Source: Akkermansiaceae bacterium | GTDB taxonomy: Bacteria > Verrucomicrobiota > Verrucomicrobiia > Verrucomicrobiales > Akkermansiaceae | DNA length: 64,000 nucleotides | NCBI GenBank assembly: GCA_015062045.1 | Contig: SUVJ01000002.1 | Location: forward strand, 1,300-65,299 | Reading direction: 5' to 3' | Part shown: piece after piece, positions 1,004-58,934 of the stretch | Position numbering within the stretch: position 1 is the stretch's first letter | How the letters are laid out: each line of letters starts with the position of its first letter | Made by a program: the position numbers and the translations under genes | The notes under the pieces: model-generated | The model's database searches: none | What the model saw: the letters and a program-made list of their open reading frames with translations, nothing else | Told to the model about the DNA's origin: nothing

Positions 1004-1037
1004 GCCGCTGCCTGACTCTCAGGCAGCGGCAATTTTT
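1004..1037 (+). terminator. Intrinsic terminator of tnaA
   Basis: Perfect 12-bp stem GCCGCTGCCTGA-ctc-TCAGGCAGCGGC followed by AATTTTTT, 35 nt after the stop. Confidence 0.85.
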
Positions 1038-1251: not shown

Positions 1252-1417
1252 ACAGCATTATGAATGATGTAGCAAGCAAAAAATACCAAAAATCTTAAAA
1301 ATAATGCACTTTCGCTGATTTTGTTATGGTACGATTCATCAATGCTCCATGAAACTCACTACCTTTAACCGTTATAAAATCAAATATTTACGGCAGCTAC
1401 ATCATTCATAATGCTGT
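1252..1417. promoter_or_regulatory. Candidate invertible promoter (inverton): 22-bp perfect inverted repeats around a 122-bp AT-rich segment
   Basis: 1252-1273 ACAGCATTATGAATGATGTAGC is the exact reverse complement of 1396-1417 GCTACATCATTCATAATGCTGT. It lies directly upstream of a PEP-CTERM gene. Confidence 0.75.
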
Positions 1418-1430
1418 ATATTATGGTCAT

Positions 1431-1493
1431 CAGCTCGGGGCAGGTCTCTCAGCCTCCCAACGCGCGCGGGAACGAGTACCCCTGCACGAGCTG
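1431..1493 (+). other. Structured 5' leader hairpin of the PEP-CTERM gene
   Basis: CAGCTCG(1431-37)/CGAGCTG(1487-93), GCAGG(1440-44)/CCTGC(1481-85) and inner TCCC/GGGA pairings. Starts at the predicted TSS. Confidence 0.5.
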
Positions 1494-1526
1494 CACGAAA
1501 CTTCTTAATAATCAAATCTTACAATC

Positions 1527-2327
1527 ATGAAAAAAACAATTATAGCCCTTATGGCTCTGGCCGGTGTTGCAGCTGCGGACACACTGACATATGACCAGTA
1601 TAAAGAGGCTGGACTTCTGACGGGACTTCAAGCAGCGTGGGACTTCGATTCTGCTACTGCCGACGTGCTTACTTTTACTGTAAACAACTCTTTCTCTGCC
1701 GCTAACGGTGTCGGTTCTGTGGGCAGTTCGGATACACCTTGGGCGAACAAATCAGATGACATCGCAACCGCTTTTAATACTGACGAATTCACATTCAGCT
1801 TTGACTTGCTGTCGTATAACTCAAACACGTGGAAAAATGCGGTTTCGCTGTATAGCGGCGGCAATAATGATCAGATGCTGGCTGTGACTAGCGATAACAG
1901 CGGAATCCTTATATACGACTATGGCTTTGGCGGTAAAGCTAATGTTTCAACATCAGTAGCATCATTAGGAGCGCTGCCAGCGGATGGTTCCGGTATGAAC
2001 ATTACGCTGACTTTCAAAGGAAAGACGCTCACGACGTATCTCAATGGTAAGAGCGTTTCTACGTACACTTTGACTGGTAATGCACTGGAAAAGGGATTGA
2101 CGGGTTTTCAGTTTAACTGCGGGTTTGGAGGCGTACGTCCGGCTAATACTCCCGGCACTCAGACACTCGATAACCTTGCTATTTGGAATAAAGCTTTGAC
2201 TGCAGACCAAGTGTCTATGATTGCTTCGGGTGTCATTCCTCAGACTCCCGCTGTCCCCGAGCCCGCAACGGCTACGCTTTCCCTCCTTGCCCTCGCTGGT
2301 CTTGCTGCTCGTCGTCGCCGACGCTAA
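1527..2327 (+). CDS. PEP-CTERM surface protein with LamG/concanavalin-like domain
   Basis: Signal peptide MKKTIIALMALAGVAAA; LamG-like motifs (AAWDFD, TTYLNGK, LDNLAIWNKALTADQV); C-terminus VPEPATATLSLLALAGLAARRRRR. Confidence 0.9.
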   Translation: MKKTIIALMALAGVAAADTLTYDQYKEAGLLTGLQAAWDFDSATADVLTFTVNNSFSAANGVGSVGSSDTPWANKSDDIATAFNTDEFTFSFDLLSYNSNTWKNAVSLYSGGNNDQMLAVTSDNSGILIYDYGFGGKANVSTSVASLGALPADGSGMNITLTFKGKTLTTYLNGKSVSTYTLTGNALEKGLTGFQFNCGFGGVRPANTPGTQTLDNLAIWNKALTADQVSMIASGVIPQTPAVPEPATATLSLLALAGLAARRRRR

Positions 2328-2474: not shown

Positions 2475-2601
2475 CTTTGCATTTTTGACGAGAGCCCACA
2501 AGTATGGGCACTTACTTTTAGAGGCGTGGGTCTCTATGTTGACAGATAAATGAATTATTGCGGGTTAAATGCTATCTGTTTCAGCAGATTACGGGGAGGG
2601 A

Positions 2602-3042
2602 TTATTTGCGGCGTCTACGGGCGGTGAGAGCCACCAGGGCGAGCAAGCCGAGAGTGGCCGTAGCGGGCTCGGGGATTACTTGCAAATACACAGCCGAGCC
2701 GACTCGGACCACATTGGCTTGCAATCCTTCGTAACCGTCAATGGTGAAATAGACGGAAGGAGAAATCGTAATGCGCCCCTCAACCCCATCGAAGAGGAGG
2801 AAGCAGTGCAGCGGCTCCGCTGTACCCGGATTTCACCAATACGGAACTACGGGTGGCCGCTAGCTCCAACGTACCGCCGAACCCATCCGTAGAGGACAGG
2901 AGGAGTTGCCCGTCGCGTCTTTTACATCAGTCCCCGTATCCACGTCTATCTTAATCGGGTCTGCCACAAGTGTACCCGATACAGCATAACTGATAGCGGT
3001 AAGAGCCAATATAACACGCCGAACAAGTAATGAAAGCCTCAT
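2602..3042 (-). pseudogene. Disrupted PEP-CTERM gene
   Basis: Manual translation gives signal peptide MRLSLLVRRVILALTAISYAV at 3042 and, in the same frame, the tail LQVIPEPATATLGLLALVALTARRRRK* ending at 2602. In-frame stops at 2860-62 (TAG) and 2833-35 (TGA) lie between. Confidence 0.75.
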
Positions 3043-13443: not shown

Positions 13444-13496
13444 GCTGCCGTTAATTCAACATGACGGGTTTATAAACATTTATTATTCAATTTTGC

Positions 13497-40330: not shown

Positions 40331-40468
40331 TTAAACCGTCAACTTATGCCCGGAGCGGGATGCATAATCGGCGCGTTGGTCATCGCCGATGGGGCCTACG
40401 GCAAAGTAGCGAGCCTCGGGGTGATTGAAGACAAGCGCACAGATGGCAGAGGTGGGTTGCATCATGCA
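40331..40468 (-). repeat. Displaced duplicate of the metH 3' end (att junction)
   Basis: Encodes [45 protein letters not shown]. 13 mismatches in 132 nt and no indels versus 44802-44933. Confidence 0.92.
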
Positions 40469-40473
40469 GGACT

Positions 40474-42159
40474 TCATTTAGCTCCAGCAACTTTCAACAA
40501 TTTAACTATCTCAACATGTCCTTTCTCTTTTGCTACGGACAAGGGAGTCTCCTCTCCTGTACTTTTATTAACATCGATTTCAGGAACCTCTAATAATGCC
40601 TTAACAACTTCAATATGCCCATTCTCGGCGGCCCATTTCAAAGGTGTCCCATTTTGACCAATATATATACCACTAATACCTTTATTAACGTCTATTTCAG
40701 GTACAGTTAATAACAATTTAACTATCTCAAGATATCCTCTCTGAGCTGCAGCCTCCAAAGGTGTTATACTGTTTTGCATTCCGTATCTCAATTTGTCCCC
40801 TTCATTCACGTCTATGCCTGGTACATTGAGCAAAACTTCTACAGTTGCGACATCATTACTAATTACAGCTTTTTGCAATAAGTTCTTAGATTTAACCCCT
40901 GCATTTAATAGAGCCTGTACAATTTGTGAGTGTCCGTGCCACGCAGCGTAATCCAGAGAATTCCATTTTCCATCGTATTTACCTGATATCGCTCCATTAT
41001 TTGAAGAACCGGCAGCAATAAAAGCCATAATACACTCTAACGGTAAATGTTTTTTGCAATCCCCTTTATCATGCCACAAAAAATATATACTTAGAACAAA
41101 ATCATAATCTTTTATTTTTTTCTGGCCATCTTTACACAATTTGTAATTATATAAAAACTGTTCAGATTCCTTTCTATACGAATCATCAATATAGTTTTCA
41201 TACGGATTAATTTTGAATGCAGCTTCACTTTGCGCAAAGTTGATTCTCTCGCGTACCACCCCAGCAGCATACGGATCTATAATCTCATAGCGCAAAAGAA
41301 GTTGAACAGCCTCATCAGTTGAGATAATCTCTATGCATCCTGCATCTTTCAACAGCGCTCTCATTTCTGAAGAAGAGGCAAGCTTTAATAATTCTCCCCC
41401 CTTAGCCGGGTTTGTAGAGACCGAACTTGCTTCAAAAAACTTCCTTGCCAAATTGACATTATTCTGACGAACAGCCAATTCTAATACTTCGTCGGGAGCA
41501 CCTAACGTAGCACCGGCATTCTCCAACAACGCAATAGCCTCATCATTGTTATCTCTTGTTGCCAAATACAAAGGAGTAACACCCTCACAATTTTTAACAT
41601 TTGGCATTGCATTAGTCTGTATCAATAATTTTGCTATTCGTAAATTATTTCTACTTATTGCGTAGTGCAATACAGTATTTCCGTTTGAGTCTTTTTCATC
41701 AATATTAACGTTTTTAGTTAATAAAAATTTTACCATCTCTGTTCTAGCATTTTCAACGGCAAAAAACAAAGCGTTCTTACCTTTATCATTTTCAGCGCCA
41801 AGGTTACCTCCTTTTTTTAATAGATTTTCAACAATTTCAGTATTTCCTTCAGCAGACGCCGCCATGATTGCCGTATTACCGTGCATATCTTTTGCGTTAG
41901 CATCAGCTCCGGCTGCCAACAATAAATTAACTCTTTTAATACTACCCTTGCTGGCAGATGTAAGCAATTGCTCATCATACTGCAAAACAGATATACCTAA
42001 TTCAGCTAACTCCTTTTTTGCTAATCGCTTCTCCTTTTCTTCTTCGGAAAGAGAAGCAAATTCTTCCATTGCTAGTCTCTTTTCTTCTTGAGATTCACAA
42101 GAAATCAAAAAGAAGCAACTCGAGATAACACAAAATTGACGAACAAAGTTTTTATTCAT
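40474..42159 (-). CDS. Ankyrin-repeat lipoprotein
   Basis: Lipobox LISC; two ankyrin blocks (GNTAIMAA, GNTVLHYA, GVTPLYLA; TPLEAAAQRGYLEIVKLLL, TPLKWAAENGH). Confidence 0.9.
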   Translation of the reverse strand: MNKNFVRQFCVISSCFFLISCESQEEKRLAMEEFASLSEEEKEKRLAKKELAELGISVLQYDEQLLTSASKGSIKRVNLLLAAGADANAKDMHGNTAIMAASAEGNTEIVENLLKKGGNLGAENDKGKNALFFAVENARTEMVKFLLTKNVNIDEKDSNGNTVLHYAISRNNLRIAKLLIQTNAMPNVKNCEGVTPLYLATRDNNDEAIALLENAGATLGAPDEVLELAVRQNNVNLARKFFEASSVSTNPAKGGELLKLASSSEMRALLKDAGCIEIISTDEAVQLLLRYEIIDPYAAGVVRERINFAQSEAAFKINPYENYIDDSYRKESEQFLYNYKLCKDGQKKIKDYDFVLSIYFLWHDKGDCKKHLPLECIMAFIAAGSSNNGAISGKYDGKWNSLDYAAWHGHSQIVQALLNAGVKSKNLLQKAVISNDVATVEVLLNVPGIDVNEGDKLRYGMQNSITPLEAAAQRGYLEIVKLLLTVPEIDVNKGISGIYIGQNGTPLKWAAENGHIEVVKALLEVPEIDVNKSTGEETPLSVAKEKGHVEIVKLLKVAGAK

Positions 42160-42190
42160 ATTCTTATATTAAAGTTATCTATTTACTCTT

Positions 42191-43528
42191 TTATTTTTTA
42201 ACGGCATTCTTCAACAAGTTGGCACATTCTCCCCTTGCCACATCAAGAGGTTTTTCCCCATCACTATTTACTCTATTTACAGAAACGCCGGGAACAGACA
42301 GAAGTGTTTTGACACACTCAACATGACCATTTTGGGCAGCGAGGAATAGAGCAGTGTTTCCATCATAAGAAGAGATATTAACATCAATACCCGATTGCGC
42401 GACCAATAATTGGATGCATTCATTCCTTCCATTTGCAGCCGCACATAACAGAGGCATCCCTGCATTTACATTTATAGAAGGAGATGACAATAATTCACGA
42501 ACACACTCCGTATGACCATTTGAAACAGCTAAACTTAAAGCGGTATTATTCATATTACTTTTATTAACACTAACTCTCGAATCAGCAAGCAGTATACGAA
42601 CACACTCGGCATGGCCACGAGCCGCAGCGCAGCACAAGGGAGGATACGCAGCAACTTGAGGAGCAGAAGAGGCAATAAAGTTACTCATAGTATCTGAAAG
42701 ATTTACATCCACCCCTGGAGCAGCCAAAAGTAGACGAACAATTTCCGCATGACCTCTAGCAGCAGCAATATTCAAAGCAAAATGTCTATTCACATCAATT
42801 TTTAATGATGATTCTAACAACAATTTTACTGATTCGGTATCACCATTATTAACGGCAGTGCTTAAAATTGAATCATCACATTGATTTCTGTTAACCTCTG
42901 CATCGAGCAAAAGGCGAAGCAAACTATGATTTTTTTCTTTTACAGCATAAGTTAATTCTCTACCATAAGCTGATGGAGGGATGCCTCTATTAGCAAGTTC
43001 GGTTCGGGCTTTTCCTTTAGCTGATAGCAATTGAGCTTTTCTTTCAGCAGCAAGACGTTCTTGCTTCGCTTTTTCCTCTTTCTTTAGTCTTTCTTGTTTT
43101 TCTCTTTCAGCAGTAATCTCTGCACCTAACTCAGCCATAGGTGCTAACTTTTCAAGTTGATTTTCCTTTTCAGAAATTTTCTCATATAATTCATCTATGA
43201 GATTTTGTTTTTCTGTTATTTCTCCATTTTTGGATTCTACAATGGCGCGTTGATTGGAAACTTCAATATTCAATTCATCACACTTACCGAGAAGGATAGA
43301 ATTATCTTGTATTTTTTCTGCAATTTGCTGTTTCAGAGATTCTATTTGTAATGTTTGTAATTTCTCAGCTTCCGTAAAACAAGAATGCTGTATTAATAGA
43401 GCTGAGGAAAAAATTGCCAATGGGACAACACATGCACTGGCCCATATAACGATTCTTTTTTTAGAGCGCTTAAGGGGTGATATAGCCGCATTGCGTTGAA
43501 TATTATTTTCAGATTTATTATCAGTCAT
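42191..43528 (-). CDS. Membrane-anchored coiled-coil plus ankyrin-repeat protein
   Basis: TM segment IVIWASACVVPLAIFSSALLI; E/K/Q-rich coiled coil; ankyrin repeats (ALNIAAARGH, PPLCCAAARGH, TALFLAAQNGH). Confidence 0.9.
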   Translation of the reverse strand: MTDNKSENNIQRNAAISPLKRSKKRIVIWASACVVPLAIFSSALLIQHSCFTEAEKLQTLQIESLKQQIAEKIQDNSILLGKCDELNIEVSNQRAIVESKNGEITEKQNLIDELYEKISEKENQLEKLAPMAELGAEITAEREKQERLKKEEKAKQERLAAERKAQLLSAKGKARTELANRGIPPSAYGRELTYAVKEKNHSLLRLLLDAEVNRNQCDDSILSTAVNNGDTESVKLLLESSLKIDVNRHFALNIAAARGHAEIVRLLLAAPGVDVNLSDTMSNFIASSAPQVAAYPPLCCAAARGHAECVRILLADSRVSVNKSNMNNTALSLAVSNGHTECVRELLSSPSINVNAGMPLLCAAANGRNECIQLLVAQSGIDVNISSYDGNTALFLAAQNGHVECVKTLLSVPGVSVNRVNSDGEKPLDVARGECANLLKNAVKK

Positions 43529-43724
43529 AATAATTAATTTTTTAGATTTTAAATAAAACTACGATTAATACAAAATCTATATACGCTTTCATAAGCCGTA
43601 TTACACCCTACCAAAACACATGGATATTAGCGAGTTGAAATTGTAGTCATGTTTTCATGAAAAGAGCCTGCGGTTGAGTAAAAGATTTTGAAATCATTGC
43701 TATTTTCTGCTTGACTTACGGATT

Positions 43725-44723
43725 ATGAATACGCACAAACATACCGATGTAACAAAAAAGGAACAGGCTGCTATAGAAATACTCAACAGCACGGGGATAG
43801 ATATAATTGAGGCAGCACTGATTGCAAAAACAGCATTAGCAGCAGGTAGAGGACAAATTCAACGAACGATGAAATGTATACACACGGGAGAGGAAGAATT
43901 AAAACGACAGGAAAATACAGTTACATTTAAGAAAGCAGTTGAGGCAGCTCTTGCAGCCAGAAAAGACTGTCGAAACAGAACCAAACAAGATTTTCGATAT
44001 ATAACAACGAGATTTTTAAAACGCTGCAAGAACCTAGCGGAAAGAAAGATGCGCAGCTTGAAAAGCGAAGAGTGCGCTCGCTATTTGGAAGAAGCCTTTG
44101 ATACCCCCTGTCAGAAGGTAAAAGCAAGAAGAATATTAAGTGGAGTATTCAGCACAGCAATCAAGCGTGGCTGGTGTGATGAAAATCCAATAAAAAACGT
44201 AGATATTCCCAAATTACGAGAAAAAACAATAGAAATATTATCAACAAGTGAAATCGAGCAATTGTTACACAGCGCAAAAGAATATCATAATGGCAAATGC
44301 TTAGCAGCTGTCGGAATGATGATGTATGCAGGAATTCGACCTAATGAAGTATCTAGATTAAACTGGGAAGATATTGATTTAGAGAATAAAAGCATCTGCA
44401 TATTACCACAACACAGTAAAACCGGTGGTGCAAGAATGGTTACCATTTACCCATCTTTAGAAAAATTACTCAGCAGTTGCAAAGCAGTCGGTCAAATATG
44501 TCCGACACAATGGTTAAAACACTGGAGAAACCTTAGAAAACAAGCTGGGTTTCAGCATTGGCAACCGGATGTATTACGACACACCTATGCCAGTTATCAT
44601 CTGAAACACTTCCGTAACTACGCAGAATTACAATATGAAACAGGACATCGGGATAGCAACCTACTCCGCACTCGTTATGTGAACCTGAAAGGCGTACATA
44701 ACGAGGCCGATTTCTGGAGGTGA
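43725..44723 (+). CDS. Tyrosine recombinase/integrase
   Basis: YAGIRPNE (Arg), HSKTG (Lys), DVLRHTYAS, ETGH, LLRTRY (Tyr). Confidence 0.92.
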   Translation: MNTHKHTDVTKKEQAAIEILNSTGIDIIEAALIAKTALAAGRGQIQRTMKCIHTGEEELKRQENTVTFKKAVEAALAARKDCRNRTKQDFRYITTRFLKRCKNLAERKMRSLKSEECARYLEEAFDTPCQKVKARRILSGVFSTAIKRGWCDENPIKNVDIPKLREKTIEILSTSEIEQLLHSAKEYHNGKCLAAVGMMMYAGIRPNEVSRLNWEDIDLENKSICILPQHSKTGGARMVTIYPSLEKLLSSCKAVGQICPTQWLKHWRNLRKQAGFQHWQPDVLRHTYASYHLKHFRNYAELQYETGHRDSNLLRTRYVNLKGVHNEADFWR

Positions 44724-44795
44724 AATCATACACTCTTGAACCTTAAGACATGTACTTCGTTATGCCATTTTACATCATGACTCGAATTTACTTAT

Positions 44796-47700
44796 TTAGC
44801 ATGTCAACTTATGCCCGGAGCGGGATTCATAATCGGCGCGTTGGTCCTCTCCAATGGGGCCAACGGCAAAGTAACGAGCCTCGGGGTGATTGAAGATAAG
44901 CGCACAGATGGCGGAAGACGGCTGCATCATGCACGTTTCTGTAAGCGTGGTACCGGTAAGTGCGGTTGCATTCAGCAAGGAGAACACCGTGCGTTTCTCT
45001 TGATGGTCCGGCTGGGAGGGGTAGCCGCATGCCGGGCGAACCATGGCAGAGCCGGCAACGGGCCAAACTTGTTCTGCACAATCCTGAGTGCACTCAGCTA
45101 AGGCCTCTGCGAGCATATTGGCCACGGCTGCGATTAACAGCGCGTTGTAGGGGTCGTTAGCGGCATTGAGCTCTGCGCTCCACTCATCTGCACCGGTGAT
45201 AGCCATTTGCATGGCACCCACATAACCATTTTGCTCAGCCACAAAATCAGCCAAAGCCACGCGAGGTTTATCGGAGATTTTCTGCTGACGAAGGCTGTGC
45301 AACACCGTACCGCCCTGCACCTCAATATCATCCCCACAGCGAGCGGCCGGCCATATACCGAAACATGATCGGGCTTGGATGCGGTTCTCTGCTAAGGCTC
45401 GTTTCAGAATAGCCTCTGCATCAGCACGCAATTTAGTGGCCTCCTGCTTTTTCTCCTCCGTACGTGCAGCATGCATACCGAAGGTACGCAGGGTAATGCT
45501 CCAGTCCGCCTTATCAAGCAACTGCTGCCATGTAAGGGGGAAATCCGGTTGCGGGTGGAGGCAAAAACACCCGGCAGGCACACCTACGGTGAACACACCC
45601 GTGCGCTGCGGGAGCGGTTGAGCAGCGGGCGCATGCAAAGCGCGGGTGCGGGCCTCCTCCAAACTGTACAGCGGAATTTCTTTTTGTTCAAAGCCTGCGC
45701 ATAAACGAGCCTGCTCTGCTTTATATTCTGCAATAAATGCCCCCTTAGCACTACCGATGAGAGCCGTTGCAACGGGTACTATTGTGGAGGCATCTGCCGT
45801 TTGTACAACAACACCGTCCGGATAATGGGGTGCTAATTTAAGAGCCGTATGCAGCGGGCTTGTGGTGGCCCCCCCCACCAACAGCGGGGTATTCATACCC
45901 GCTGCTTGCATGGCGGCGGCCACGGCAGCCATTTCATCCAAAGACGGCGTAATCAGCCCCGAGAGAGCCACCAAATCCGCCTTTTCACGCAGGGCGCATT
46001 CTATGATTTGCTCCTTAGGCACCATTACCCCCAAATCTACCACACGGAAACCGTTGCAGGAAAGCACCACACTTACAATATTTTTACCGATGTCATGCAC
46101 ATCTCCCTTAACCGTTGCCAACACTACGGTGGCAGCCGTTTTTTGTCCGGTCTGAGCAGACTCCAACAAGGGAGTGAGCACTGCCACACTTTGCTTCATC
46201 ACGCGAGCACTCTTTACTACCTGAGGCAAGAACATTTTACCGCTACCAAACAGCTCGCCCACCTGTTTCATGCCATCCATAAGGGGGCCTTCAATCACTT
46301 GCAAGGGGGAGCCGCATACGCCCAATGCTTCCTGCGTGTCGGCCTCAATATGCTCAGTAATACCATTTACCAAAGCATGAGCCAAACGCTCTTGCACGGT
46401 AAGAGAACGCCAATCTGCCATTTTCTTGGCAACCGGCGCAGGGGCACCTGCCCCCGCTGCTTTTAGCGCGGCCTTGGCTTCCGCAAGCTCCTGAGCATAG
46501 GCAATCAGACACTCGGTAGCATCCTCCGCGCTGTTGAGCAATACCTCTTCCACCAACTTACGGCGGTGAGCAGGTATGGTATCATAATTTGTCATTAAGG
46601 CAGCATTGACAATGCATAAATCTAAGCCCCCCAAGGCAGCGTGGTGCAAGAATGCACTGTGCATGGCTTCTCTTACCGGGTTGTTACCACGGAACGAGAA
46701 GGATACATTGGAGATACCACCCGAGATATGACAAAGCGGATGACAACGAGTAATCTCTGCCGCAGCACGGAAGAAATGCAGCGCATGGTTAGCGTGCTCG
46801 GCAATGCCGGTACCTACGGTTAACACGTTGGGGTCAAAAATGATATCCTCTGCCGGGAACCCCACCTGTTGCGTCAGCAGCTCATACGCACGGTGAGCAA
46901 TAGACACACGGTCATCATAAGCACAGGCCTGGCCGTTTTCATCAAAGCCCATCACCACCACGGCTGCACCGTAACGGCGTATGATACGAGCTTGGCGCAA
47001 AAACTCTGCCTCGCCGTTCTTTAAAGAAATAGAGTTGACAATACCTTTACCCTGTACACATTGCAGGCCGGCTTCAATCACCTCCCACTTAGAGGAGTCA
47101 ATCATGCAGGGCACACGTGCAATATCCGGCTCTGCCGCTACCAGGTTCAGGAACCGAGTCATGGCAGCGGGGCCTTCAATCATGCCGTCGTCAAAGCAAA
47201 AATCCAACACGCGCGCCCCCTTTTGTACCTGAGCACGGGCAATTTCGAGTGCTTCTTCATAGTTACCCTCCCGAATCAGGCGAGCAAACTTGGGGGAGCC
47301 GGCCACGTTGCACCGCTCGCCTATGAACATGATACCCTCCCGCCGGTGGTGACGGCACGGCTCCAACCCGGAGAGATACAGCGTGCCATCCGTCTCGCGG
47401 GTGGGGATAACACGTGGGGCATACCCCTGCACCGCCTCTCGTATAGCTGCAATGTACTCGGGGGTGGTACCACAGCATCCGCCCACAAAGTTCAGCAAGC
47501 CTTGCTCCGCATAGTCTTTAAGGATTCCGGCCATGTGGTCGGCAGAGTGGGCATAGCCGCTCGGGCTGAGGGGATCCGGCAACCCGGCATTAGGGTACAT
47601 GCTGATGGCGCAATCTGCCAACTCGCTGAGTTCCTGAGCAAAAGGCAACATCAAATCCGCTCCCAGGGCGCAGTTGATACCAATGGAAAGGGGCTTGGCA

Positions 47701-48982: not shown

Positions 48983-49011
48983 CTTATAGCACTAATTTAT
49001 GGTTTTGTCAA
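48983..49011 (-). promoter_or_regulatory. Sigma70-type promoter of nuoA
   Basis: Minus strand ttttgc-TTGACA-N17-TATAAG. Confidence 0.8.
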
Positions 49012-57172: not shown

Positions 57173-57222
57173 GACCCCACGCATGACTCATGCAGGTCTG
57201 CCGTAAACGAATAGAATCGCTT

Positions 57223-58590
57223 ATGAAGCCTCAACTGATCCACATCGCTCTGACTGCAACCGCCGTAGCAATCTTATCATCTTGCGATGATAACGCAGCA
57301 TCTCAGCAAAATGCCACGGCAACGGCAACGGATACAACGGCAACCACCCCGGATGAAATTCAAACAACGGAGGATGAACCGACTTTGCCGGAAATTACCC
57401 CCGAAGAGATAACCGCAGCTTTTGCTCCCAGAATCTCCGGCATGAAGTACCTGCTGCAAGAGGGCATGGAAATTGAGAGCACCCCCAAAGCCAATGGCGA
57501 CTTGCAGGTAAAAGCCAAGGTAACGCTTAAAATCACGGAAGATTTGTACAGCCGCAGCGAGGCTCCTGCAGAGTTCAGCGAGGCCCGCAAGGTTGTCTTT
57601 GCCCTGCACCAATCCGTAGAAAAACCGGACTCTGTTTACCTGATGGATATGGGGGCAGAAACCGCCCTGCTGACGGATGAGGATCGCAAGGTCAAACCGC
57701 TGCCGGAGAACCTGCAACAAATTTATAACGAGTTAGTCAATTTATCTGAGAGCTCCTGCTTCAAACCGGCTCGCAATGCCAATGACACCTTTGTACTGGA
57801 GCTTACCATGGATGCCCATTGGAGCGAAGGTCGCTGGAATGTGTCCAACATCGTGGAGACGGAGGACCTGCTCTCCCCGCTTTCTTTCCTTTCCCCCGCC
57901 TCTTCGCTGGAGAAAGGCGCCCCCATCCTCACGCAAGAGTTTATTGCCGCTCGTATGGAGGAAATTGCCGCCAAGGCAGATGCATTCAAAACCGCAGCCG
58001 AGGAATACCGCAATACCCGTGAAAACGATGTGCGTAACATGCTGACACAGCGCCAAGCACATCAGCAGGAGGAAGCGCTCAAAGCTGCCGAGGCAGAACA
58101 AAAAGCTGCTGCGGATGCCGCAGCTAAGCAAGAATGGAGCAACATCTGTGTTCAGCATTTCTCCCCCGGTCGCAAGTTCAGTGGAGAATGGACTCGTGAT
58201 GCCAAGTTCGGCGAGCTCACCATACAAGTGGACGGTGCCACCCTGCATGAAAACGCCATTCAATTCTATGGCCACATGTACGACACCAAGCTGCCGCAAG
58301 CCAGTATCGCCATTACCGGCAGATGCAGCACCGTTAAGGAGGAGGATGGCAGCTCCAAAGTCAACGTAACCCTCTACAGCGGCGCGTACGACCCCGATGA
58401 ACCCACCGCAGAGGTATACGATGCCGCAGATGGCCGCCTGATTCTTAATTTCGACAAGAATGGTAACCTGCATGGTATCATGACCTGCGCCTCATGGGTG
58501 GACCATCCGCATAAGAACTTCAACCTGCACTTCAAAGCCCTGCCCGCCCCGGCTAAAGCCCCGGCAGATGCAGAAACAAAAAAGCAGTAA
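57223..58590 (+). CDS. Hypothetical lipoprotein with central coiled coil
   Basis: Lipobox LSSC; A/E-rich helix (EEALKAAEAEQKAAADAAAKQE). Confidence 0.75.
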   Translation: MKPQLIHIALTATAVAILSSCDDNAASQQNATATATDTTATTPDEIQTTEDEPTLPEITPEEITAAFAPRISGMKYLLQEGMEIESTPKANGDLQVKAKVTLKITEDLYSRSEAPAEFSEARKVVFALHQSVEKPDSVYLMDMGAETALLTDEDRKVKPLPENLQQIYNELVNLSESSCFKPARNANDTFVLELTMDAHWSEGRWNVSNIVETEDLLSPLSFLSPASSLEKGAPILTQEFIAARMEEIAAKADAFKTAAEEYRNTRENDVRNMLTQRQAHQQEEALKAAEAEQKAAADAAAKQEWSNICVQHFSPGRKFSGEWTRDAKFGELTIQVDGATLHENAIQFYGHMYDTKLPQASIAITGRCSTVKEEDGSSKVNVTLYSGAYDPDEPTAEVYDAADGRLILNFDKNGNLHGIMTCASWVDHPHKNFNLHFKALPAPAKAPADAETKKQ

Positions 58591-58652: not shown

Positions 58653-58730
58653 GAAAGCTCAACAAAACTATTTATCTTGCATCCTGCGAATCTCCGGAGT
58701 CCCCTATAAATTGGTAGTTGAGTGGTAACA

Positions 58731-58934
58731 TACGAAATCCGAAATCCGAAATACGAAGTCAATTTAGTTCGGCTCACAGCTACGGGAAATCTCCCTTGCT
58801 GTTCGCAAAATAAGCATTGCTATCTCAACGCTTACTGCCGTAATTACACCAGTAACTTATGCAAGGCTTTGCAACATTGCGCCGCAGGCGCCTAACTCTG
58901 AAAATTCGTATTTCGTATATCGTAATTCGTATTT
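58731..58934. repeat. Structured element bounded by inverted heptamer arrays
   Basis: 4 x TMCGAAR (58731-58758) and 4 x WWTCGTA (58904-58931) in inverted orientation, with internal hairpins. Confidence 0.65.

Follow-up and report, generated by a model that had tools for sequence, protein, structure and literature searches.

A probable split-promoter inverton, assembled in the OFF orientation, at a LamG/PEP-CTERM surface protein gene of an uncultured gut Akkermansia

We analyzed a 64,000-nucleotide stretch of Akkermansiaceae DNA (the window). It probably carries a split-promoter inverton of an uncultured gut Akkermansia that controls a LamG/PEP-CTERM surface protein gene and was assembled in the OFF state. 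A first-pass annotation had proposed such a switch here. Its observation is confirmed, and its interpretation is largely supported in structure. In the mechanism that we propose, the −10 box TATATT (1417 to 1422) and a structured leader would stay fixed beside the gene. A T-tract would ride at one end of a 122-nt invertible segment together with the TT of the −35 box, and a 19-nt recombination site with its GCT extension would supply both the remaining −35 bases and the spacer of 17 nt. Inversion would put ttttttgcTTGCTA 17 nt from TATATT and thereby assemble a sigma-70-type promoter. Reversion would leave CAGCTA at that position, with the half promoter aimed at TGGATG and at no gene.

The switch is bounded by the sequence ACAGCATTATGAATGATGTAGC at 1252 to 1273 and its exact reverse complement at 1396 to 1417. 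Both a direct reading of the sequence and a repeat search found all 22 of 22 positions complementary, and the coordinates given for a perfect 22-bp repeat in the first-pass annotation are correct. The two arms are separated by 122 nt, and the whole switch spans 166 bp. This is the layout of an inverton, a short DNA segment held between inverted repeats (here 122 nt within 1252 to 1417). With up to three mismatches allowed, the 22-mer occurs at just these two places in the 64 kb, and the number expected from 100 shuffles is 0.00. The left site contains a 19-nt near-palindromic core, ACAGCATT-ATG-AATGATGT (1252 to 1270), followed by a 3-nt inner extension, AGC. This core has one mismatch to the family consensus ACAGCATT-NNN-AATGCTGT. 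The centre of the right site, CAT, is the reverse complement of the ATG centre of the left site. The features of the locus are listed in Table 1.

Table 1. Features of the switch and its surroundings, in window coordinates
Feature	Position	Strand	Description
Intrinsic terminator of the upstream beta-eliminating lyase gene	1004..1030	+	12-bp stem, then T-run
Left recombination site	1252..1273		22-nt inverted repeat, perfect; family-consensus core
Half promoter	1270..1283	-	T-tract/TTTTTTGC at 1276-1283 and -35 box TTGCTA at 1270-1275
Invertible segment, 122 nt	1274..1395		Half promoter at left end; no promoter box beside the site at right end
Right recombination site	1396..1417		GCT extension and core ACATCATT-CAT-AATGCTGT
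Fixed -10 box TATATT	1417..1422	+	Not part of the invertible DNA; first T shared with the right site, as its final base
Conserved 5' leader, about 104-110 nt	1423..1526	+	Stem-loop at about 1431-1493
Putative regulated gene	1527..2327	+	266-aa secreted protein with LamG-like (Laminin_G_3) domain and PEP-CTERM sorting tail

The half promoter at the left end of the segment presently points left at TGGATG, where there is neither a −10 box nor a gene. On the gene side, TATATT starts on the last base of the right repeat, and the hexamer 17 nt upstream of it is CAGCTA (1394 to 1399). Both of these readings had been made before, and the sequence bears them out. Manual reverse complementation of 1274 to 1395 yields the flipped form ttttttgc-TTGCTA-catcattcataatgctg(17)-TATATT, which is the junction that had been predicted and can also be written ttttttgcTTGCTA-catcattcataatgctg-TATATT. 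The promoter activity of this flipped form is predicted from its geometry and from the family statistics given below.

A promoter scan of 900 to 2700 found no sigma-70-like promoter in the present orientation and so detected none that would compete with the proposed switch. The first-pass annotation had pointed to TATAAAAT at 1373 to 1380, inside the segment, as an alternative promoter. We rejected it: it was without a −35 partner in the scan, and it sits at the segment end that lacks the half promoter, a part in which the family copies compared by eye look dissimilar. The annotation had also compared the flipped junction with four promoters elsewhere in the window. Three of them are real matches to TTTGCTTGnnA-N17-TAnnnW, at 13492(+), 35208(+) and 40270(−), and none was expected by chance. 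The one near 48983 ends in TATAAG and is weaker. The extended −35 element TTTTGC-TTGnnA with a 17-nt spacer in these three ordinary promoters may be lineage-specific.

To place the window locus in a family, we searched for the pattern TTTTGCTTGCTACA-N12-CTGT in one genome per species (GTDB; 185,579 species genomes). There were 23 matches, 16 of them in Akkermansia or Akkermansiaceae MAGs, and a partner site lies 97 to 383 nt upstream of the match in 16/16 of the Akkermansia loci. Relatives of the repeat, for which the first-pass annotation had suggested a search, therefore exist: 16 Akkermansia loci by the promoter-plus-site pattern and more by the site alone. The common recombination site is a 19-nt near-palindrome, ACAGCATT-NNN-AATGCTGT, made of two 8-nt inverted arms and a 3-nt centre. 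When all fetched DNA was searched with the core alone, the sites always occurred in pairs or triplets, and shuffled sequence gave 0 per 64 kb. The central triplets are reverse-complementary within every inverted pair and different between loci (ATG, CTG, GCG, GTG, CGG, TTC, TTG, GTT, GAC, CTA and GGC). Elsewhere in the window (58730 to 58932), the intergenic DNA after the gene at 57190 to 58590 contains another inverted repeat (28 nt, 86%), composed of CGAAAT-like units with a separation of 147 nt. It is not a member of the ACAGCATT-NNN-AATGCTGT family.

The promoter elements hold a constant position relative to the site. The sequence TTTTGCTTGCTA adjoins one site in every family member. The last base of TTGCTA, or of a near variant (TTGCAC, TTGCGT or TTGATA), falls on the first base of the core, and the box is preceded by a T-rich stretch. 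The search pattern included the −35 box, so part of its conservation in the 16 loci reflects the search itself. However, the −10 box was absent from the pattern and therefore provides an independent test. Because the −35 box abuts the site and the normal spacer is 17 nt, the −10 box must lie just outside the site. Reading from the last T of the core through the next 5 nt, we found TAnnnT in 24 of 44 family flanks and in 18 of the 21 flanks with PEP-CTERM genes, where about 8% is expected (p about 1e-15). Copies found without the −35 box in the search have the same geometry (the first switch of L026, and L028, L031, L034 and L038). The family geometry thus upholds the structural proposal of the first-pass annotation, in which the repeat is the spacer, the −10 box is fixed and the segment supplies only the TT and the T-tract.

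Several relatives carry the complete promoter. The ON state of locus L018 was scored by the promoter scan as TTGCTA-17-TATATT followed by the leader, and these are the two hexamers predicted for the window. The ON copy of L034 has TTGCAC-17-TATGAT and the leader. A paralogue in the Logan contigs of the same metagenomes is in the ON arrangement, TTTTTTGCTTGCTA-cagcctttggaatactg-TATATTATCGTCATC. It has a different repeat core, and its promoter reads TTGCTA-cagcctttggaatactg-TATATT. In L037 (2373 to 2401), a PEP-CTERM paralogue has a fixed promoter, TTGAAT-17-TATAAT, and the shared leader, with no recombination sites; not all genes of the family are therefore phase-variable. The −10 box of L037 stands in the same register to the leader as TATATT does in the window. 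This is good evidence that TATATT at 1417 to 1422 is the real −10 box of leader-containing transcripts.

The segment might instead invert without splitting a promoter, and act through a complete internal promoter, through some other element, or through a leader-based switch such as termination. Other signals could reside in the inner end beside the −35 box, which is AT-rich and shows conservation across about 40 nt among paralogues, and the leader is structured. However, every member has its −35 box directly against the site, so that a −10 box at normal spacing can only fall outside the segment. It is precisely at this outside position that the gene-side flanks are enriched in TAnnnT. The register of the fixed L037 promoter and the lack of any complete gene-directed promoter in the scan of the present orientation argue in the same direction. 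We consider such a non-split arrangement unlikely and favor the split promoter.

It is far less probable still that the repeat arose by chance, or that it represents a hairpin, a terminator or small-transposon ends and plays no part in regulation. The palindromic site and the T-rich sequence next to it did score as terminator-like in L018. However, the repeat had zero occurrences in the shuffles, the family architecture is conserved at PEP-CTERM genes, and the rearranged junctions described below are exact at the repeat borders. A transposon is also at odds with the absence of a transposase and with copies that have different flanks and locus-specific centres.

The window copy had been read as OFF. 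CAGCTA occupies its −35 position, the scan found no promoter, and the four orthologous assemblies are likewise OFF. All five full assemblies of the locus (the window, L001 to L003 and L027) are therefore in this state. Three of those beyond the window are independent and identical to it, and one comes from a strain that is about 96% identical across the locus. Two JGI contigs also contain the locus. A metagenome contig collection searched with the 24-mer of the −35 box and repeat, and with the family pattern, gave no match; this collection evidently does not contain these organisms.

The evidence for inversion is at the level of contigs, from Logan assemblies rather than raw reads, built with k = 31. 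Because this length exceeds the 22-nt repeat, words that span a junction must come from real molecules. Inverted junctions, which the first-pass annotation had proposed to seek in reads, were found in Logan contigs from three gut metagenomes (X10, X12 and X17), exact at the repeat borders. The X10 contig (record 1; 232 nt) runs from the left flank (1226 to 1251) into the reverse complement of 1417 down to 1226. It thus comprises the left flank, the repeat and the inverted segment, and it has 0 mismatches to the window over 192 nt. This contig has the left flank at both ends and could in principle represent a structural variant in place of a mixture of orientations. The X12 contig (record 10; 151 nt) joins 1234 to 1271 to the reverse complement of 1378 to 1284 and comes from a variant strain; X12 also holds contigs in the reference orientation. 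In X17, from sheep gut, the main form is OFF at 69-90x. One minor junction, at 8.1x, joins the right end of the segment through the repeat to the reverse complement of the left flank, and another, at 8.9x, joins TTTTGCTT through the repeat to the leader. Records 6 and 7 of X17 carry the inverted junctions, and the two ON junctions have equal minor depth.

The ON contigs of X12 and X17 carry SNPs of a different, co-resident related strain. Therefore, these two samples show precise inversion among close relatives, not within one clone. Two further observations come from related switches. The orthologous switches L012 and L021, in MAGs of two species, lie in opposite orientations, and their flanks are collinear at 86% identity. 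In X20, a promoter cassette like that of L028 is joined to a leader, and the L028 assembly itself is OFF. At contig level, both orientations occur in natural populations, with their junctions at the repeats.

A fossil switch would also leave orientation differences between strains, old and fixed, if the locus came from an active family and has since ceased to flip in this strain. The five of five assemblies in the OFF state fit this view, as do the strain-marking SNPs in X12 and X17. Six near-identical runs (X1 to X6), at 9-13x depth, likewise had no inverted junction, but absence at about 10x says little because Logan contigs drop minor variants. Against a fossil, the repeat still matches at 22/22 positions, the half promoter and the −10 box are intact, and the junction contig of X10 shows no difference from the window in 192 nt. 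On balance, a fossil seems improbable to us, and a working switch remains the preferred reading.

Some other joints in these samples were set aside. The joint on the opposite strand between 1280 and 1396 in X13 belongs to an ON-state paralogue, not to the window locus. Joints that skip sequence in X8, X9, X11, X12 and X15 come from paralogues or alleles with a different inner segment. In X5 to X7, position 1252 (site and half promoter) is joined to 1521 on the opposite strand in a contig whose depth is about 3x that of this strain. The joint would place a PEP-CTERM start codon 6 nt from the site and leave out the leader, and the contig may come from a more abundant strain with a rearranged paralogue.

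The 266-aa protein encoded downstream of the switch matched PF13385 at 4e-11 and PF07589 at 8e-5 in Pfam. It has 494 homologues, and those that are named are Akkermansia sp. PEP-CTERM proteins. Homologue names, together with the descriptions of the runs, identify the organism as an uncultured Akkermansia of animal gut samples. The gene begins 104 nt downstream of the −10 box, and transcription is predicted to start near 1429, about 7 nt downstream of 1422. The leader is covered at an assembler depth 25-60x that of the flanking DNA, which implies many copies of it in the metagenomes; it is common to many PEP-CTERM genes. Its stem-loop starts at the predicted 5' end of the transcript. Both the fold and the covariation support this structure, and compensatory changes occur in 12 of 15 stem pairs (alignment A1, 10 copies). 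An Rfam search of the switch and leader returned no real match. The upstream beta-eliminating lyase gene ends at 968, and the terminator that follows it is predicted to insulate the switch from read-through. Convergent to the regulated gene, the minus strand of 2569 to 3042 carries fragments of a decayed PEP-CTERM gene. The tail region of the decayed gene and the tail of the gene at 1527 to 2327 form a 67-nt, 72% inverted repeat (2254 to 2320 and 2609 to 2675).

The first-pass annotation had noted that no recombinase is adjacent to the switch. Pfam scans of about 34 window ORFs agree: they found no recombinase within 40 kb of the switch and one tyrosine recombinase, at 43725 to 44723, 42 kb away. 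This gene lies in a 4.4-kb insertion at the 3' end of metH (40338 to 44933) that looks like a small integrative island. The island is bounded by 131-nt direct repeats that are 91% identical (40338 to 40468 and 44803 to 44933), and it also holds two ankyrin-repeat genes on the minus strand (40474 to 42159 and 42191 to 43528). The recombinase belongs to a family of >1000 homologues, and the homologues with a named source are from Akkermansia sp. Three close homologues (five loci) lie in similar small islands beside housekeeping genes. A role for it as the switch invertase is unsupported, given the direct repeats, the ankyrin genes and the island-type homologues. Its own context and its close homologues in small islands make it more likely that it is the integrase of the island. 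Recombinase homologues with a switch within 5 kb were found in L010 and L034/L035 only. The one in L010 is 36% identical and lies 1.6 kb from the switch, and we treat it as a lead only.

We suggest that the switch is acted on in trans by a tyrosine recombinase encoded elsewhere in the genome. With an odd-length centre and a 7-bp overlap, a tyrosine recombinase would be a better fit than a serine invertase of the Hin type. One shared recombinase would bind the 8-nt arms, which are conserved, and strand exchange would require a match in the centre, taken as a 7-bp overlap TT-NNN-AA. Such matching would fix the reaction as inversion, and it would block recombination between different switches.

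Published work had already placed invertible promoters in this genus. A. muciniphila invertons are described as enriched beside PEP-CTERM genes (Jiang et al. 2019, Science 363:181, as cited in PMC11892184) and as "re-discovered" as group 138 (PMC11892184). PMC13343947 quotes their repeat motif as CGGATT..AATCCG, describes an experimentally verified cps1 switch in A. muciniphila, and mentions the invertible cps promoters of Bacteroides. One published A. muciniphila example has 17-nt repeats around about 157 nt. Those invertons resemble ours in genus, in similar size, in their many dispersed copies, in their association with PEP-CTERM genes, in the occurrence of both orientations in gut samples and in having no adjacent invertase linked to them. 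In our family, 21 flanks carry PEP-CTERM genes, and the window gene has PF07589.

However, the quoted repeat, CGGATT..AATCCG, differs from the ACAGCATT-NNN-AATGCTGT site found here. Neither the window nor any of the loci fetched contained paired CGGATT..AATCCG sites, and no match to our family pattern in the GTDB species genomes was titled A. muciniphila. Together, these results point to a second site family in other Akkermansia species. The statement of the first-pass annotation that such promoters had been reported upstream of PEP-CTERM genes in Akkermansia therefore stands as to publication, but the A. muciniphila invertons concerned have a different site. One switch of our family, represented by the orthologues L012 (329 to 471) and L021 (733 to 873), would control an Acyl_transf_3 (PF01757) membrane acyltransferase gene rather than a PEP-CTERM gene. 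This recalls the acyltransferase that ends the A. muciniphila cps1 locus. A search for the cps1 switch through the acyltransferase adjacent to L021 found distant acyltransferases only. The literature searched contained no description of a promoter split across a recombination site, although the motif of Jiang et al. (2019) may imply such a geometry. Invertible promoters at Akkermansia PEP-CTERM genes are thus already published, and the site family and the promoter architecture are what is distinct here.

Other invertible systems share parts of this design. The polysaccharide promoters of Bacteroides fragilis undergo dispersed inversions by a global serine invertase, Mpi, and the complete promoter lies inside the invertible DNA. 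The present family is similar in its dispersed short invertible promoters for surface structures, in its single repeat consensus and in a recombinase that would likewise be encoded elsewhere. However, only the −35 half moves here, and the odd 3-nt centre would fit a tyrosine recombinase better. In E. coli fimS, which is inverted by FimB and FimE, the whole promoter lies inside 314 bp between 9-bp repeats, with the recombinase genes adjacent. Both fimS and our switch are short invertible ON/OFF elements for a surface structure, and a tyrosine recombinase is likely here as well. In contrast to fimS, the −10 box of our switch is outside the segment, there is no adjacent recombinase, and the repeats are not 9-bp repeats. 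The serine invertases Hin and Gin have an adjacent invertase gene, sites of about 26 bp, a 2-bp crossover and an enhancer within the segment, whereas the window has no recombinase within 40 kb of the switch and an odd 3-nt centre between 8-nt arms.

The closest mechanistic analogy is provided by the hybrid promoters of insertion sequences, in which an outward −35 box in the end of the element joins a resident −10 box; an example is IS1 at afa (PMC9820224). In both cases, a mobile −35 box meets a fixed −10 box across a terminal repeat. However, the hybrid promoters arise by transposition, usually one-way and accidental, whereas the change here would be reversible and site-specific, in an arrangement conserved across a gene family.

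Some members of the family are flanked by genes on both sides. L006, L010, L018 and L019 have a −10 box, the leader and a gene on either side of the switch, so that these switches would toggle between two genes. L028 (1059 to 1368) and L023 (1671 to 2000) are three-site switches, with two sites in one orientation and one in the opposite orientation. Both have divergent PEP-CTERM genes on the two sides and a single good −35 cassette. This layout suggests a multi-state "promoter shuttle." L028 bears a 91%-identical orthologue of the window gene, and its cassette could be delivered to either divergent PEP-CTERM gene by successive inversions.

Taken together, these properties allow a joint reading, which we advance tentatively as plausible but short of probable. 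The site would double as the spacer, the −35 half alone would be mobile, the centres would insulate the switches from one another, and a shared cassette would impose mutually exclusive expression. With the site serving as the spacer, the recombinase and RNA polymerase would compete for the same DNA. With a 3-nt centre specific to each locus, dozens of switches could use one enzyme and still not recombine with each other. In L006, L010, L018, L019, L023 and L028, a single −35 cassette would be passed between alternative PEP-CTERM genes.

Among gut symbionts, Akkermansia has received intensive study, and the PEP-CTERM proteins that it encodes are, to our knowledge, a large family of surface proteins of unknown function. 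The present analysis adds a second family of recombination sites, in Akkermansia other than A. muciniphila, that would escape searches with the published repeat motif. Because the −10 box stays with the gene, searches for whole promoters within invertible segments would also miss or mis-score these switches. The site consensus offers a simple handle for cataloguing the switches in metagenomes and for identifying the recombinase. Together, the triplets at the centres and the layouts with two or three sites offer a concrete model of how one enzyme could run many independent switches without scrambling the genome, and they hint at how alternative surface proteins could share out expression.
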